A stretch of 45,424 nucleotides of DNA from Rhodospirillales bacterium (GTDB lineage: Bacteria; Pseudomonadota; Alphaproteobacteria; Bin95). The stretch spans positions 1 through 45,424 of the forward strand of contig JAYQLI010000013.1 in the NCBI GenBank assembly GCA_038143065.1. Reading direction: 5' to 3'. Below are positions 5,649 to 15,415 of this stretch, one piece after another. Position numbers and translations under genes: made by a program. Within the stretch, counting starts at the first letter, position 1; every line of letters begins with the position of its first letter. The notes beneath the pieces were generated by a model. That model was given only the letters and a program-made list of their open reading frames with translations, had not been told where the DNA came from and searched no databases.

Positions 5649-6275
5649 CTAGTCAACAATTGTGGCTTGCGTTGCGGTGCGCATCTCGTATTCACTGACG
5701 CCCTCGGCGCATTCAACGATTTTCAGACCCCCTTCAACCACGTCAAGAACACCCAAATTCGTGATAATCCGATCAACGACACCTTTGCCGGTTAACGGCA
5801 ATGTACAAGCTTTCAGCACTTTACTGTGCCCATGTTTGTTGGTGTGATCCATCACCACAACCACACGGCCCACACCAGACACCAAATCCATCGCGCCGCC
5901 CATGCCTTTGACCAGCTTACCGGGGATCATCCAATTGGCCAGATCACCATTTTCTGCCACTTCCATCGCGCCCAAGATCGCCATTGCAATCTTACCGCCA
6001 CGGATCATGCCAAAGCTGGTGGCGCTGTCGAAATAGGCGGTTTGCGGCAATTCGGTAATGGTCTGTTTGCCAGCGTTAATGAGATCGGGGTCTTCCATGC
6101 CTTCGATCGGAAAGGGCCCCATGCCCAGCATTCCGTTTTCCGATTGCAGCGTGACCTCGATCCCATCAGGGATATAGTTGCTGACAAGCGTCGGAATGCC
6201 GATGCCAAGGTTGACGTACCAGCCATCTTGCAGCTCTTGCGCAGCGCGCGCGGCCATTTGATTACGGTCCCACAT
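5649..6275 (-). CDS. scoB: 3-oxoacid CoA-transferase subunit B
   Basis: [14 protein letters not shown] (catalytic Glu), [18 protein letters not shown] before MWDRNQMA. Confidence 0.9.
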
Positions 6276-6288
6276 GATCAAATCTCCT

Positions 6289-6987
6289 CTATGCGGCTGG
6301 GCGCGTTGTGCGCTGTTCAATGCGTTTTTCATGTTCACCCTGGATCAATCGGTGCACATAAATCCCTGGAAGATGAATAGAGTCGGGATCAAGCGATCCA
6401 GTTTCGACGATTTCTTCAACCTCGACGACGCAGGTCTTGCCGCACATAGCTGCTGGTGGATTAAAGTTGCGCGCTGTTTTGCGAAACACAAGATTGCCAG
6501 TTTCATCGGCTTTCCAGGCTTTTACAATCGCCAGATCAGCAAAAATGCCGCGCTCCATGATATAGGTTTCACCTTCAAAATCTTTGTGCTCTTTGCCCTC
6601 GGCAATCACAGTCCCTACGCCAGTTTTAGTATAAAACCCAGGGATACCGCAGCCACCTGCGCGCATCCGCTCAGCCAACGTGCCTTGCGGATTGAACTCA
6701 AGCTCTAATTCGCCCGAAAGATACTGGCGCATAAATTCGGCGTTTTCCCCTACATAAGAGCTAACCATCTTTTTGACCTGCTTGGTTTGTAGCAATATCC
6801 CAATGCCAAAATCATCGACGCCAGCATTGTTCGACGCAAAGGTCATATCCTTGGTGCCGGCCTCTTTGATGGCCTGCAAAAGCAGTTCCGGTATCCCGCA
6901 CAAGCCAAAGCCGCCCGATGCAACAAACATTCCGTCAAACAGCAACCCGTCCAATGCCTGCGCAGCTGAGCCGTATATTTTCTTCAT
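6289..6987 (-). CDS. scoA: 3-oxoacid CoA-transferase subunit A
   Basis: [44 protein letters not shown]. Confidence 0.9.
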
Positions 6988-7208
6988 CAGAAGACACTCC
7001 TTATTATGATCTCAACGAATTATGGAAAAGCTTTAAGACAGTTTTAGCCAATGCAATGCAGCTTGATCCTTGGCCATTGATGTTGAAAACATCATCCACA
7101 ACTTTTGTCGTCAACCCATCCAACGAGTAAATCATACCTTTTTTATACATTGGGTTGCCGTGTTTAGTCCTGATTTTCACGATGACTGACGCCCAACTCA
7201 GCGCGACA

Positions 7209-8734
7209 CTACATCTGCGCATAGGTTTGCCAGGGAGCAAATTCTGCGTCACCGATATCCAATTCTTCCGACCGAGTTTTGGAGCCAGATGCCGTTTCCA
7301 AGATAGTTTCGAAAATCCGCTGGCCCGCTTCAGCAACGGACTCCGTCCCTTCCGCAATTGCACCGCAATTCAAGTCCATATCGTCTTTCATCTGCGAGTA
7401 CATGGAGGAATTTGACGCAATTTTAATTGATGGTACTGGCTTGTTTCCGGAGCAAGAGCCTCGCCCAGTCGTAACGCAAATAATATTGCAACCGGAAGCA
7501 ACTTCTCCAGTGATCGAAACTGGATCGTAGCCCGGACTGTCGACGAAAACCAATCCTTTTGATTTGATTGTTTCTCCGTATTTATAAACTCCGTTTAAAT
7601 TCGTCGTTCCAGCTTTTGCAACTGCCCCAAGCGATTTTTCCAATATTGTGGTCAGGCCGCCTGCCTTGTTTCCCGGCGTCGGATTATTGTTCATCTCCGA
7701 ACCGTGTTTCGTTGAATAGTCTTCCCACCACTCCAAAAGTTCGACCAACTTTTGTCCAACTTCTGTAGAGGCCGCACGGTCTGTCAACAAATGCTCGGCG
7801 CCATAGATTTCGGGGGTCTCGGCCAGTGCCGCAGTTCCACCGTTTTTGACCAGAAGATCCACCGCGTATCCAAGCGCAGGATTTGCTGTTATTCCAGAAT
7901 ATCCATCCGATCCACCGCATTGCAAAGCAACACTGAGATGAGAAGCATCGACTGGTTCGCGCTTTGCTTTTGCGGCTTCCGCCAATGCCGTCTCAAGCCA
8001 CAGCAGTCCCTTCTCCACTGACTTTCGTGTACCGCCAGCGCTTTGCAATGTGTAGTACTGAAAGGTCTTATCTTGCGGTTTACCGTAGGCTTCTAACATC
8101 AATGGAATTTGGTTCGCTTCACATCCAAGGCCTAGCATAAGCACCGAAGCAAAATTCGGGTGCGTTGCATAACCCCAAATCGCGCTTTGCAATTTGCGAA
8201 AGGCCTCGTCATCCGTGCCGATACAGCATCCCGCCCCGTGCACAATGGGGACAATACCGTCAACACCGGGAAACTGATCCAATACACCCGAACGCTCCGC
8301 TTCACGTGCCAGATGCCTGGCTGCAGAGGCAGAGCAGTTCACTGAGGTAACGATACCCACATAGTTACGGGTCCCCACCCTCCCATCAGCTCTGCGATAT
8401 CCTTGGAAAGTCGCCCGCTCGCGCTCCAGAACAAACTGTGTTTCCTGCGCCTTACTCCCGTAACTTTGAGACCGTTTAAATTGTGCCATTTCAACGTTGT
8501 GAACGTGAACGTGTTCCCCGCGTTGGATGTCTTTTGTCGCAAGACCAATGACACGTCCGTATTTGATGATCTCTTCACCGGGTGCAATTTCGTTAAGGCG
8601 ATTTTGTGCCCCGATGGGATCGCGTTCTGTGCTACAAGACCGGAGGAAGAGAGCTGGCTGCCGGGTTCAATTTCTTGTAAACAAACAGCTATATTGTCAT
8701 TTTCACTCAGAGTAAGCAGGGATACATGTGACAT
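7209..8734 (-). CDS. UxaA/GarD-family altronate/galactarate dehydratase (frameshift near 8580)
   Basis: N-terminal SAF domain (DNIAV..IPSGHKIA) plus GTRNY, GLGCE, QCGGSDG, NNNPTPGNKAGGLTTILEKSLG, TTGRG. Confidence 0.88.
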
Positions 8735-8788
8735 TGGTTTTCCATTGAATATTGATTGTTACCAAGCGAAGTTTGACGGTTCTGCAGT

Positions 8789-13502: not shown

Positions 13503-13528
13503 ATCGATAAGTGCGCTTACACTACTGG

Positions 13529-14560
13529 TTAAGGTAATGTCTGCAGCGTTGTCCAGCGACCCGAAGAGGCAACAAAGGCCTTCATTGATTTATACGCCTC
13601 GCCATAAAGCGGATCTTTTTCCGCTTCACCGTTCAAGACCCGCTCAGTGGCCACGCGCAACTTTGCCAATACCTCAAGGGGGAAGGTTTTTACGATTGTA
13701 CCTTCGCTCTCGAATACTTCAATTTGGGGTGTTTGCGCGGCTGGAGCATATTGCAAGGTCCATCCCAGACTGACTTGGCAAGCAGCCTCATACATCGTGC
13801 GTTCTGCAGAGCTCATGCCATTCCAGACATCCATATTGATCATTAAGACATCGGCGCTGCCTGGCTGATGCCAACCTGGATAATATTGAAATTTAGTAAT
13901 CTTATTAAATCCAAAATCTTTATCGATGATTGGCAATGAGAATTCAGTTGCGTCAATACGACCACGCTCAAGAGCAAGGTATATTTCACTTGCCGGCATA
14001 TATTGGGCTGAGGCGCCAAATTCGTTTAGAACCTTTGCTCCCACACCGGCCATGCGCATCTTTAGACCGTTAAAATCTTCGATTGAAGTAATTTCTTTGT
14101 TAAACCAACCGCCCGGTTCTGGTGCAGTAATGTGACAAGCCAAAACTTTAATGTTTAACGGATCAAAACCGCGCTGAACGATTTCAAGACCTCCACCTAC
14201 ATGCAGCCAAGCGGCTAAGGCTTCTGGACCCGCACCAAAGGGCGTTGCACCGATTTGTGAAACAGGCACCTGACCACCCCATTGACCCAAGAAACTCCAG
14301 CCTGCTGGAACAGCGCCAGAACTTACACTTTCGAGGATCTCGCCTGCAGGAATTAATTCACCGGAACCAAAGAGGTTTAAACCGACATCACCGCCGCTCA
14401 TATCTCTGAGGCTTTTATCCATCAATTTCGCACTGTCCGCGAGAAAGGTTAGGTCTTTGGGGATGCTCATGTGAACATCGAGTAAATCCGCAGAAGCGGT
14501 AGAGGCGCCTAAAGCCACTGAGCTGGCTAAAATAGCCGCCGAAAACTTAGAAAAATTCAT
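13529..14560 (-). CDS. TRAP substrate-binding protein DctP (TakP-like, carboxylate)
   Basis: Signal peptide; GGWFNKEI, GLKMR, EIYLALERGRIDATEFSLP, YYPGWHQP. Confidence 0.88.
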   Translation of the reverse strand: MNFSKFSAAILASSVALGASTASADLLDVHMSIPKDLTFLADSAKLMDKSLRDMSGGDVGLNLFGSGELIPAGEILESVSSGAVPAGWSFLGQWGGQVPVSQIGATPFGAGPEALAAWLHVGGGLEIVQRGFDPLNIKVLACHITAPEPGGWFNKEITSIEDFNGLKMRMAGVGAKVLNEFGASAQYMPASEIYLALERGRIDATEFSLPIIDKDFGFNKITKFQYYPGWHQPGSADVLMINMDVWNGMSSAERTMYEAACQVSLGWTLQYAPAAQTPQIEVFESEGTIVKTFPLEVLAKLRVATERVLNGEAEKDPLYGEAYKSMKAFVASSGRWTTLQTLP

Positions 14561-14635
14561 GTTTATACTCCCATCTATTTGACCGTCCCGAATTTGCATA
14601 AAGGATTTATCGTCGGCCGATCAGTATCTGATAAA

Positions 14636-14655
14636 TGATTTTTGATCAAAAATCA
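14636..14655. promoter_or_regulatory. Putative GntR operator, perfect 20-bp palindrome
   Basis: TGATTTTTGA/TCAAAAATCA about 75 bp upstream of the dctP start and next to the GntR gene. Confidence 0.65.
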
Positions 14656-14740
14656 AATTAGAAGATTTATCTAAGGCGGAGATCAAAACATTATTCTGAA
14701 ATACCGGGTAAAACCGCGAAAAGATTTAGAGATTTTGTTT

Positions 14741-15415
14741 TTAACTGTCCGCTTCTGCCCTAAAAAGCCTTTGAACCAGCATATCATAAGCATCAGAAAC
14801 GTCCTGCCCTAAGGCAAGTGAGGCGCCATCAGCATCCCCTTTCCGAATCATCTCTACAATCTTGCCGTGATGCTCGTTGGAGACTTTGAATTGCTGTTCG
14901 CGCTCGAGATAATAAAGATGCGGGCTCACTCTAAGCCAAAGTGTGTTGATGATTTCGGTTAATGTCGTCGACTGCGATTGCTGATAAATTCTGAAGTGAA
15001 ACTCATAATTCACTTTAACATATTTATGCACTTCACCGCTCATCGCTGTCTGTTCTAGCTTTGCCAGTAGGCCTTCTAAATCGGTTAAAAAATGGGCATC
15101 TCTTTTCTTTACGGCCCATCGAGTGGCAAGCGTTTCCACTTCAAGGCGAACATCACGCAAATCTTCTAGTTCTTCCAAACTTAGCTCTGGAACTCCAACA
15201 GATCGCCCCGAAACATTTGAAAGTACACCGACAGCCAGTAATCGCGTTAATGCCTCTCTCACGGGCATGGCGCTTACTTCAAAGGCTTCAGCGATCTGTG
15301 CAACACGAACAGCTTTTCCTGGCGTAAACTCGCCTTCTCGCAGAAACGTGCACAGCCGATCATAAACCTGATCATGTAGCTTATCTTTATGAATTGGTTT
15401 TTGATTTTTAAACAT
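14741..15415 (-). CDS. GntR-family (FCD domain) transcriptional regulator
   Basis: HTH VSAMPVREAL; FCD NYEFHF and EHHGKI. Confidence 0.9.
   Translation of the reverse strand: MFKNQKPIHKDKLHDQVYDRLCTFLREGEFTPGKAVRVAQIAEAFEVSAMPVREALTRLLAVGVLSNVSGRSVGVPELSLEELEDLRDVRLEVETLATRWAVKKRDAHFLTDLEGLLAKLEQTAMSGEVHKYVKVNYEFHFRIYQQSQSTTLTEIINTLWLRVSPHLYYLEREQQFKVSNEHHGKIVEMIRKGDADGASLALGQDVSDAYDMLVQRLFRAEADS

Follow-up and report, generated by a model that had tools for sequence, protein, structure and literature searches.

A TRAP transporter, BKACE and UxaA gene cluster in a Rhodospirillales bacterium: a candidate accessory operon for the catabolism of an imported hydroxy carboxylic acid

A cluster of ten co-oriented genes and its conservation

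The window analyzed here (the whole stretch of DNA, 45,424 bases) is the entire contig C13 (JAYQLI010000013.1) of a 52-contig, 4.63-Mb assembly of a Rhodospirillales bacterium (GCA_038143065.1). [quoted passage not shown] With moderate confidence, and by analogy with the oxidative 2-deoxyribonate pathway, we interpret this cluster as an accessory operon for the catabolism of an imported hydroxy carboxylic acid. Family assignment of the open reading frames (ORFs) of the window relied on Pfam and NCBIfam profile matches, and these confirm the gene order that an initial annotation, made from the sequence alone, had listed. The families, their order, their conservation and their presence in RNA libraries were observed directly. 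The order gntR-dctPQM-SDR-BKACE-HCDH-UxaA recurs at 62-90% protein identity in locus L121, from another species (genome G324), and dctPQM-SDR-BKACE recurs in loci L122 and L127; the arrangement is therefore more than chance, and the cluster is a real operon-like unit.

The conservation extends to most of the proteins involved. DctP and DctM are 85-86% and 90-91% identical, respectively, in L121 and L122, the SDR located beside BKACE in L121, L122, and L124 is 77-79% identical, and the regulator is 68% identical to the one found at the same place in L121. L122 continues from BKACE into HCDH, while L127 starts with gntR and has an HCDH relative upstream, and both lack UxaA. The tight spacing of dctM-SDR-BKACE-HCDH-UxaA also favors a common operon: the stop of the SDR gene and the start of the BKACE gene overlap or lie no more than 20 bases apart, and UxaA follows HCDH on the same strand after about 54 bp, both in the window and in L121. 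In the latter, UxaA is followed by a PaaY/CaiE/gamma-carbonic-anhydrase-like hexapeptide protein and then by a glycerate-2-kinase-like DUF4147+MOFRL protein, the second scoring below the glycerate 2-kinase cutoffs (143 vs. 550) and the first likewise below the cutoff of its model.

Proposed route and closest known systems

The route that we infer (each reaction, the kind of substrate, the division of stereoisomers between the two dehydrogenases, and the position of UxaA) would run as follows. DctPQM would import a monocarboxylate bearing a 3-hydroxyl and a C2 methylene, most likely a 2-deoxy sugar acid or a related hydroxy/oxo-hexanoate. The SDR, which looks NAD-type, and HCDH, both acting on the free acid, would oxidize the 3-hydroxyl to give a beta-keto acid, possibly with one enzyme per C3 epimer. 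The zinc enzyme BKACE would then move the acyl part to CoA with acetyl-CoA, releasing acetoacetate, which the ScoAB CoA-transferase, encoded directly downstream, would activate. UxaA would most probably dehydrate a 2,3-dihydroxy acid to the corresponding 2-keto-3-deoxy acid. That dihydroxy acid would be either the one set free from the acyl-CoA product of BKACE (glycerate or a tetronate) or a second imported aldonate, and the GntR/FCD protein may control the operon. The core of this succession, from a 3-hydroxy acid through a 3-keto acid to an acyl-CoA and acetoacetate taken over by ScoAB, had been put forward in the initial annotation and fits the families found.

The same annotation considered the route undescribed, which is too strong, since the same logic has been published for 2-deoxyribonate (Price 2019, mSystems, PMC6365646) and for phloroglucinol (Zhou 2023, mBio, PMC10470551). 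The cluster thus varies on these two known BKACE pathways instead of representing a pathway of a new kind; we found no description in the literature of this particular combination of genes.

In the oxidative deoxyribose/deoxyribonate pathway, as far as described in the sections available of the study in Pseudomonas simiae, Paraburkholderia bryophila, and Burkholderia phytofirmans, a Mo dehydrogenase and a lactonase give the acid, an SDR oxidizes C3, and a BKACE yields glyceryl-CoA and acetoacetate; the pathway is completed by a glycerate kinase and by turning acetoacetate into acetoacetyl-CoA and then into acetyl-CoA (Price 2019, PMC6365646). The window cluster shares with it the adjacent SDR and BKACE genes and the activation of acetoacetate by a CoA-transferase, and the relatives of the cluster contain lactonases (L125, L126, L133-135, L244, and L246) and a glycerate-kinase-like gene (L121). 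In contrast, the transporters reported for that pathway belong to the major facilitator superfamily instead of TRAP, and the window cluster adds the lambda-crystallin-type dehydrogenase, UxaA, and scoAB directly downstream.

The anaerobic phloroglucinol pathway of Clostridium scatologenes comprises the phloroglucinol reductase PGR, the ring-opening hydrolase DPGC, the dehydrogenase TfD, and the transferase TAL, and its last step is the cleavage of 3,5-dioxohexanoate by a BKACE, giving acetoacetate and acetoacetyl-CoA (Zhou 2023, PMC10470551). According to the available parts of that report, both clusters have an SDR, a free-acid dehydrogenase of the 3-hydroxyacyl-CoA dehydrogenase type, a BKACE, and a CoA-transferase for acetoacetate, and NCBIfam names the window BKACE after the reaction of the clostridial enzyme. 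In contrast to the phloroglucinol cluster, the window cluster lacks the cyclase-family DPGC, its SDR looks NAD-specific and not NADPH-specific, its TRAP transporter is of a carboxylate type, and UxaA has no counterpart in the cluster reported there. The accessible portion of the supplements of Zhou et al. contains cyclase-containing clusters in Rhodobacterales, with no mention of TRAP, DctP, altronate, or galactarate.

A more specific version of the proposal is doubtful. In this version, the cluster would represent an undescribed CoA-dependent, kinase-free acid-sugar route of marine alphaproteobacteria, in which two stereo-complementary free-acid dehydrogenases, UxaA, and BKACE would split a (deoxy)aldonate into acetoacetate and a 2,3-dihydroxyacyl-CoA, whose acid would then be dehydrated to a 2-keto acid. 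If true, UxaA dehydratases and BKACE enzymes would be functionally connected for the first time, and the large "3,5-dioxohexanoate-type" BKACE clade, found in 186 of 401 sampled genomes of one family, would gain a physiological role. Identification of the substrate would assign a function to the TRAP binding protein, the two dehydrogenases, the UxaA subfamily, and the BKACE clade together.

The BKACE clade and the meaning of its database name

BKACE enzymes form a large family with few physiological assignments. The window BKACE matches the PF05853 profile over its full length (positions 1-274 of 274) and aligns with the solved structure 3e49 (488 bits) and with BKACE15 of Paracoccus denitrificans (8rio/8rip, 467 bits), which belongs to the same clade. 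With 546 bits, it also exceeds the cutoff (430) of the NCBIfam equivalog NF053538, which bears the name "3,5-dioxohexanoate:acetyl-CoA acetone transferase". Nevertheless, all seven other members of the clade that were tested, from lactonase, ABC, Mo-dehydrogenase, and SDR-only contexts, reach 534-559 bits with the same model. Because members from such varied contexts pass as well, the model does not discriminate the substrate and, judging from these scores, its name marks the clade and not the physiological substrate. BKACE15 itself is a zinc-dependent TIM-barrel tetramer (PDB 8RIO/8RIP/9HNF) with proven cleavage of C5-C6 beta-keto acids; as reported in the sections available, it cleaves 3-ketohexanoate, 3,5-dioxohexanoate, 5-hydroxy-3-ketohexanoate, and 3-ketopentanoate with acetyl-CoA in vitro, and its physiological role is unknown according to its authors (Nat Commun 2025, PMC11961710). 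Taken from an in vitro substrate, the database name of this clade would wrongly suggest polyphenol degradation in surveys.

The distribution of the clade is uneven. None of the 36 other genomes of the window's own family has a close BKACE (E ≤ 1e-120), and only 56-58% identical ones turn up among the 60 relatives searched. The clade is very common among marine and soil Alphaproteobacteria: in the large family that holds genome G061, a match at E ≤ 1e-100 is found in 186 of 401 sampled genomes, and the top identities reach 79-86%. Because of this contrast between the two families, the cluster is best classified, on the basis of homology searches, as accessory in the window's lineage. The only BKACE found in a genome of the same genus (G007, locus L249, positions 363-9161) is 56% identical, and its neighbors, a class-III aminotransferase, a histone-deacetylase-family amidohydrolase, and an ABC transporter, are unrelated to the window cluster.

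The genomic context of the 23 closest BKACE loci (L121-L140 and L244-L246; BKACE 69-86% identical) was examined by a Pfam scan of hand-picked ORFs within about 6 kb on either side of BKACE, in which a gene may be missed. SGL-type lactonases are present in seven of these loci (those listed above), sugar-type Peripla_BP_4 ABC transporters in at least four (L134, L135, L139, and L244), and three-subunit Mo-dependent dehydrogenases in three (L125, L126, and L139). Together with the glycerate-kinase-like gene of L121, these lactonase and sugar-transporter contexts favor a sugar-acid-like substrate over lysine or carnitine, as the initial annotation had suggested. No cyclase-family protein (PF04199) was detected among the scanned ORFs of the 23 loci. 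In 40 further BKACE loci, tblastn with the cyclase-family ORFs of the window's own genome also retrieved none, this being a weak test and not evidence of absence.

Four of the loci (L133, L134, L135, and L244) share a recurrent alphaproteobacterial cluster composed of a sugar-type ABC transporter, an SDR, an HCDH, a BKACE, one or two SMP-30/gluconolactonase-type lactonases, and often a GntR regulator. Its gene content suggests that a 2-deoxy sugar may be degraded oxidatively by this cluster, of which no description was found in the literature. A pattern of SDR, BKACE, a gap, and HCDH, with BKACE 59-62% identical to that of the window, was considered as a possible phloroglucinol cluster and ruled out by the Pfam scan. 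Among the loci at this identity, L274, L283, L287, and L289 show a Rieske oxygenase, a choline-sulfatase-like enzyme, an SDR, the BKACE, another SDR, and an HCDH.

Dehydrogenases and transporter

The best solved relative of HCDH is the lambda-crystallin/L-gulonate 3-dehydrogenase (187.8 bits for the intact sequence and 186.3 bits in another comparison). In clostridial 3-hydroxybutyryl-CoA dehydrogenase, Lys56 and Asn221 contact CoA, and both are absent from TfD, according to the accessible text of the phloroglucinol study (Zhou 2023, PMC10470551). Aligned with the Clostridium acetobutylicum enzyme HBD (6aa8), the window HCDH keeps the catalytic Ser118, His139, and Asn, and presents Leu56 and Arg225 at the CoA-contact places (the numbering offset is our own mapping for the tagged chain). 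Since Leu and Arg replace the two CoA-contact residues, the substrate of HCDH is probably a free 3-hydroxy acid and not a CoA ester. The loss of both residues is also observed in lambda-crystallin and is not specific to TfD.

After its glycine-rich motif, the SDR reads "...KIAICDVDATAL" and "ICDVD", with Asp at the place that decides the cofactor. In SDRs, Asp at that place usually goes with a preference for NAD, which suggests that this enzyme prefers NAD. The adjacency of SDR and BKACE is conserved in eight of the 20 Rhodobacteraceae loci (L121-L140), with SDR identities of 56-79%. Pairs of SDR and BKACE alone occur in L124 and L136 and pairs of HCDH and BKACE alone in L245 and L246, so that either dehydrogenase could partner BKACE. 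Because either of them alone can accompany BKACE, we propose that the two dehydrogenases of the window may serve two C3 epimers. Regarding the transporter, the best solved relatives of DctP belong to the TakP/"ketoacid-binding protein" group (7ug8, 2hzk, 4pet, and 5cm6; 139-158 bits).

The UxaA dehydratase

The three domains SAF, GD_AH_second, and GD_AH_C are all present in the intact 508-aa forms of UxaA (P0001 and the orthologues of L121 and L139). The protein reaches 397 bits with the galactarate-dehydratase equivalog TIGR03248, below its cutoff of 730.85, and 278 bits with GarD (6u7l). This three-domain family is shared with the dehydratases described in 2019 (Sci Rep, PMC6336799), whose superfamily includes, in the sections available, the D-idonate dehydratase of L-glucose catabolism and the D-arabinonate and L-galactonate dehydratases. 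Relatives of the window UxaA that are 52-61% identical commonly have SDRs, fumarylacetoacetate hydrolase (FAH)-type hydrolases, GntR regulators, and aldo-keto reductases as neighbors, as in the Route III clusters of that study; among 77 loci, SDRs are found in 13, FAH-type hydrolases in 12 and eight, GntR in 10, and aldo-keto reductases in seven. In contrast to the Route III clusters as reported there, the window UxaA adjoins a BKACE and a dehydrogenase of the 3-hydroxyacyl-CoA dehydrogenase type and has no FAH hydrolase beside it (PMC6336799).

Orthologues at least 70% identical to the window UxaA are found in three of the 401 sampled genomes of the other family, and two of these three adjoin the BKACE clade discussed here in two different architectures: within the TRAP operon of L121 (G324) and in L139 (G431), where it comes after an ABC transporter and BKACE and no dehydrogenase is close by. 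Neither HCDH nor scoAB was found within 10 kb of the UxaA relatives in any of the 80 genome loci, and among 80 metagenome loci only L142, a contig nearly identical to the window, links UxaA and BKACE. The BKACE match near UxaA in L036 is only 30% identical and unrelated. We place UxaA, with low confidence, downstream of the BKACE cleavage, because the free acids of 2,3-dihydroxyacyl-CoAs, the expected BKACE products of 2-deoxy-aldonates, would be the kind of substrate that this family uses.

Linkage of scoAB and origin of the cluster

The initial annotation included scoAB in one closed route, and this does not hold for the cluster in general. CoA-transferase A/B genes lie beside BKACE in only one of 63 homologous loci (L125). 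Five genomes that carry related BKACE clusters were checked, and all five have their orthologue of scoB (83-91% identical) on another contig or about 1 Mb away. Co-location is thus almost never seen, which comes close to the complete absence that the initial annotation would have taken as a refutation, although the metabolic need for acetoacetate activation remains. From this comparison of loci, the linkage belongs to one lineage alone, represented by the window, L142, and the sequencing runs holding the stretch, and is not general to the cluster.

Orthologues of scoA are 88-90% identical in five of nine genomes of the same genus and 90% identical in G324. In five same-genus genomes without this BKACE, scoAB follows a different SDR (about 30% identical), and only scoAB aligns with the window at the DNA level. 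A native origin of scoAB, deduced from the same-genus orthologues, is weakened by the closest relatives by RecA (G008, 99%, and G005, 94%), which have neither this BKACE nor a scoA orthologue, only a 40% paralogue, in genomes of 2.6-2.8 Mb vs. 4.63 Mb, and by a 90-91% identical scoAB orthologue in a genome of another family. The genome studied here holds one scoA orthologue and one 39% paralogue.

The window carries two integrase genes, and phage-integrase-family and transposase genes are located just upstream of gntR in L121; the integrase next to gntR in the window had no tblastn match to that of L121 at E ≤ 1e-5. Composition gives no signal of horizontal transfer, as the tetranucleotide correlation of the cluster with the main contig (0.836) falls inside the range of the 10-kb pieces of that contig (mean 0.890, sd 0.052). 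The att-type direct repeats looked for yielded nothing beyond short matches of the kind expected by chance, and a tRNA search found none.

Frame breaks in the assembly

Single-base frame breaks affect four genes of the cluster in this assembly (dctQ, dctM, HCDH, and UxaA). In dctM, one extra C is found at 11742 and the conserved C-terminus runs on in the next frame to a stop at 11573-11571, while one extra T at 8817 gives HCDH a shifted C-terminal tail; both extra bases lie within short homopolymer runs. In UxaA, one base is missing at 8591, which leaves the SAF domain in a separate ORF of 131 aa. Among the matches listed, nearly all of the 120 UxaA homologues have about 508 aa with the SAF domain, and the intact forms P0001 and L142 (99-100% identical) have this domain as well.

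The metagenome contig L142 is 99.3% identical to the window over 7272 bases, with 45 substitutions. It has the order dctM-SDR-BKACE-HCDH-UxaA-scoA-scoB, without the dctM, HCDH, and UxaA breaks, and encodes an intact HCDH of 311 aa. The indels that separate both sequences are those at 11742, 8817, and 8591, a CG within the UxaA-scoA spacer (at 7189), and one base at 5546. Wherever positions 8591, 8817, and 11742 are covered by contigs of a DNA run and of three RNA-library runs, these contigs differ from the window in the same way as L142; run X1 lacks the extra base of dctM at 11742, and the CG at 7189, missing from the window, is present in L142 and in four of four runs. Because L142 and the independent runs lack these breaks, those of dctM, HCDH, and UxaA are probably assembly errors, and the three genes would be intact in the population.

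The gene dctQ is split into two overlapping frames of 137 and 89 aa. Removing one base from the homopolymer at either 13160 or 13128 restores a frame of 197 aa that aligns with DctQ of L121 (199 aa), and removing both does not. Run X16 lacks one base at both positions, and run X1 agrees with the window at 13160. Two other genes of the window have a comparable appearance. The integrase at 15864-17142 consists of overlapping frames of 299 and 190 aa, due either to an assembly frame break or to decay of the gene, and at 37447-39012 the N- and C-terminal domains of a GMC oxidoreductase are found in separate short ORFs, probably another frame-broken gene.

Presence in metagenomes and RNA libraries

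Twenty of the 24 runs listed hold the stretch or part of it, and the holders come from 16 studies. Fourteen DNA runs from estuary, salt-marsh, and marine metagenomes, one of which may be the source sample, hold about 0.8 of the sampled words, and three metatranscriptome runs from two studies hold 0.34-0.44 of them. RNA-library contigs cover most of the region from scoB to BKACE. Because the cluster lies on mobile-looking DNA and occurs in estuary, salt-marsh, and marine metagenomes of many studies and in metatranscriptome contigs, its substrate is probably a genuine constituent of the dissolved organic matter of coastal waters.

Regarding co-transcription across the spacer between UxaA and scoA, which the initial annotation had pointed to as a check, the RNA-library contigs do span the spacer: record 18 of run X16 (6965-7374) includes the entire spacer with 165 bases of UxaA and 23 bases of scoA, and record 27 of run X17 covers 7031-7268. 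However, with only 23 bases of scoA, record 18 bridges the stop of UxaA but not the start of scoA (31-letter rule), and these contigs give only a weak hint of read-through from UxaA to scoA. A consensus scan returned 17 promoter-like sites (13.5 expected) and 12 terminator-like sites (11.9 expected), none of them within 6988-7208, and decides nothing on co-transcription.

Weighing of the proposed route against its alternatives

Several observations weigh against an operon of the deoxyribonate kind. The window cluster lacks its own glycerate kinase and lactonase, unlike the deoxyribonate pathway in the available parts of its description (PMC6365646). For a plain deoxyribonate route, a single dehydrogenase would suffice and UxaA would be superfluous, which leaves two of the four enzymes accounted for by inference alone, and the two Pseudomonas genomes compared hold only 34-35% identical BKACEs. 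Relatives of UxaA (52-78% identical) are widespread and mostly lie apart from BKACE; a BKACE of this clade is found within 10 kb in one of the 80 genome loci (L021, 70%), and UxaA could work upstream of the cleavage or be a passenger. To the rarity of CoA-transferase genes beside BKACE is added the absence of scoAB from the syntenic clusters L121, L122, and L127. Finally, dctQ may be truly broken in this strain, and the transcriptional signal must be interpreted cautiously, since DNA can be carried over into RNA libraries and a contig does not stand for one transcript.

A distinctly unlikely alternative is a triacetate route of the phloroglucinol type. BKACE would then be the 3,5-dioxohexanoate:acetyl-CoA transferase (TAL) and HCDH the (S)-3-hydroxy-5-oxohexanoate dehydrogenase (TfD), with SDR and UxaA either replacing the phloroglucinol reductase and the ring-opening hydrolase or supplying 3-hydroxy-5-oxohexanoate from a carboxylated precursor imported by the TRAP transporter, and with acetoacetate and acetoacetyl-CoA entering metabolism through ScoAB. 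The score of BKACE with NF053538, well above the cutoff, agrees with it, but the seven other clade members tested, from lactonase and sugar-transporter contexts, among others, score similarly high. Of the four protein families that make up the Clostridium scatologenes cluster, three occur here (SDR, the free-acid dehydrogenase, and BKACE), as does an acetoacetate CoA-transferase such as that cluster carries, and HCDH lacks the same two CoA-contact residues as TfD; however, the fourth family, the cyclase to which the ring-opening DPGC belongs, is missing from the scanned ORFs of the window, the PF04199 matches of the genome being located only on contigs C35 and C36, and from those of the 23 closest BKACE loci (families as given in the accessible text of PMC10470551). 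BKACE15 does cleave 3,5-dioxohexanoate in vitro, and in the available sections its authors suspect a context of aromatic degradation (PMC11961710). Nevertheless, phloroglucinol reductases are described as NADPH enzymes with a TR(S/N) motif for the 2'-phosphate (PMC10470551, in the parts available), where the window SDR has Asp, and no phloroglucinol reductase appears among the 60 best solved relatives of this SDR. TRAP binding proteins of the group of DctP bind carboxylates, and phloroglucinol has no carboxylate; we also found no literature combining phloroglucinol with UxaA. Because no cyclase was seen among the scanned ORFs of the 23 loci, lactonases and sugar-type transporters are frequent there, and the SDR looks NAD-specific, a substrate resembling a deoxy-sugar acid appears likelier than a phloroglucinol-type one.

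The two other alternatives concern the coherence of the cluster and the role of UxaA. It is unlikely that the neighborhood is a mosaic, with only TRAP, SDR, BKACE, and HCDH as a unit, a separately acquired UxaA with its own substrate, and scoAB as an independent ketone-body/acetoacetate operon merely abutting it. UxaA is indeed missing from the otherwise syntenic L122 and L127, and its relatives occur alone among housekeeping genes (L008 and L146) or with TctABC (L006); nevertheless, the close coupling of UxaA to HCDH in both the window and L121 and the presence of two of the three closest UxaA orthologues beside this BKACE clade, in different transporter contexts, count against a mosaic. Similarly, the 221-bp spacer, the different neighbor of scoAB in the five same-genus genomes together with the DNA-level alignment restricted to scoAB, and the two integrase genes and compositionally foreign block of the contig would agree with a mosaic and an independent scoAB, but any BKACE route yields stoichiometric acetoacetate in a genome that has a single scoA orthologue besides the 39% paralogue, and RNA-library contigs cross the spacer.

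It is very unlikely that the substrate follows an epimerase-then-dehydratase route for sugar acids, of which the L-glucose pathway of Paracoccus sp. 43P is the model. An imported aldonate would then be taken through a keto intermediate by HCDH and SDR together, with one hydroxyl inverted as a result; the epimer would be dehydrated by UxaA to a 2-keto-3-deoxy acid, and BKACE would act on a later or different intermediate. The D-idonate, D-arabinonate, and L-galactonate dehydratases of the UxaA/GarD superfamily (PMC6336799, in the sections available) are in line with this, and a second pair of HCDH and SDR in the window, beside genes resembling a four-carbon acid-sugar kinase and PdxA, suggests that such pairs act on ordinary acid sugars. 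However, a 2-keto-3-deoxy acid is not a beta-keto acid, which would leave BKACE without a substrate, the cluster has no kinase, aldolase, or FAH-type hydrolase by Pfam and NCBIfam, and pairs of SDR and BKACE or of HCDH and BKACE occur without UxaA in most loci.

Coordinates and annotation of the features

The features are collected in Table 1. The probable start of the SDR gene is the ATG at 11554, and the TIGR02428 match of ScoB begins at residue 23 of its 229-aa ORF.

Table 1. Features of the cluster and of its borders (positions in the window; bits of the profile matches where available).
Feature	Position	Strand	Evidence
GntR/FCD transcription regulator, likely local repressor	14741-15415	-	PF00392 + PF07729
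TRAP solute-binding protein DctP	13529-14599	-	PF03480, 138 bits
TRAP small membrane subunit DctQ, frame-broken in the assembly	12908-13502	-	PF04290 on the first fragment
TRAP large membrane subunit DctM	11571-12927	-	PF06808, 214 bits, profile positions 1-378 of 413
Short-chain dehydrogenase SDR, putatively NAD-type	10736-11554	-	PF13561 + PF00106
BKACE	9771-10739	-	PF05853, 358 bits; NF053538, 546 bits
Lambda-crystallin/TfD-type dehydrogenase (HCDH), probably for free 3-hydroxy acids	8789-9725	-	PF02737 + PF00725; NF004783, 379 bits vs. cutoff 347
UxaA/GarD-superfamily dehydratase, 508 aa when intact	7209-8734	-	PF20629 + PF04295 on the 426-aa ORF
UxaA-scoA spacer, 221 bp	6988-7208	.	No promoter-like or terminator-like site in the consensus scan
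3-Oxoacid CoA-transferase subunit A (ScoA)	6289-6987	-	TIGR02429, 230.4 bits vs. cutoff 128.5
3-Oxoacid CoA-transferase subunit B (ScoB)	5649-6275	-	TIGR02428, 322.5 bits vs. cutoff 243.55
Tyrosine-recombinase/integrase gene split over two frames, adjoining gntR	15864-17142	-	PF20172 (DUF6538) + weak XerD-type matches

Other parts of the window and of the assembly

The main contig of the assembly (G000) has 2.86 Mb and the other 51 contigs add up to 1.78 Mb; some small ones among them (C23, C28, and C46) have a tetranucleotide correlation of about 0.5 with the main contig, and the closest relative by RecA (99%) has only 2.6 Mb, with a completeness of 96%. Some of the contigs may thus be extrachromosomal or mis-binned, and the membership of contig C13 in the main organism is not proven.

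A second integrase-associated acid-sugar island is located at 25676-33578 of the window. It contains a phage-integrase-family gene, an SDR in two frames, an HCDH, a DctM, a PdxA-like fragment, a DUF1537 gene, and a DctP that is short at its N-terminus. Its HCDH is 43% identical to the first one and reaches 377 bits with NF004783, while the DUF1537 gene resembles four-carbon acid-sugar kinases, with 117 bits for the D-threonate kinase model against a cutoff of 450. The stretch 26000-39500, which holds most of this island, looks foreign: its GC content is 0.52-0.57, and its tetranucleotide composition correlates with that of the main contig at only 0.26.

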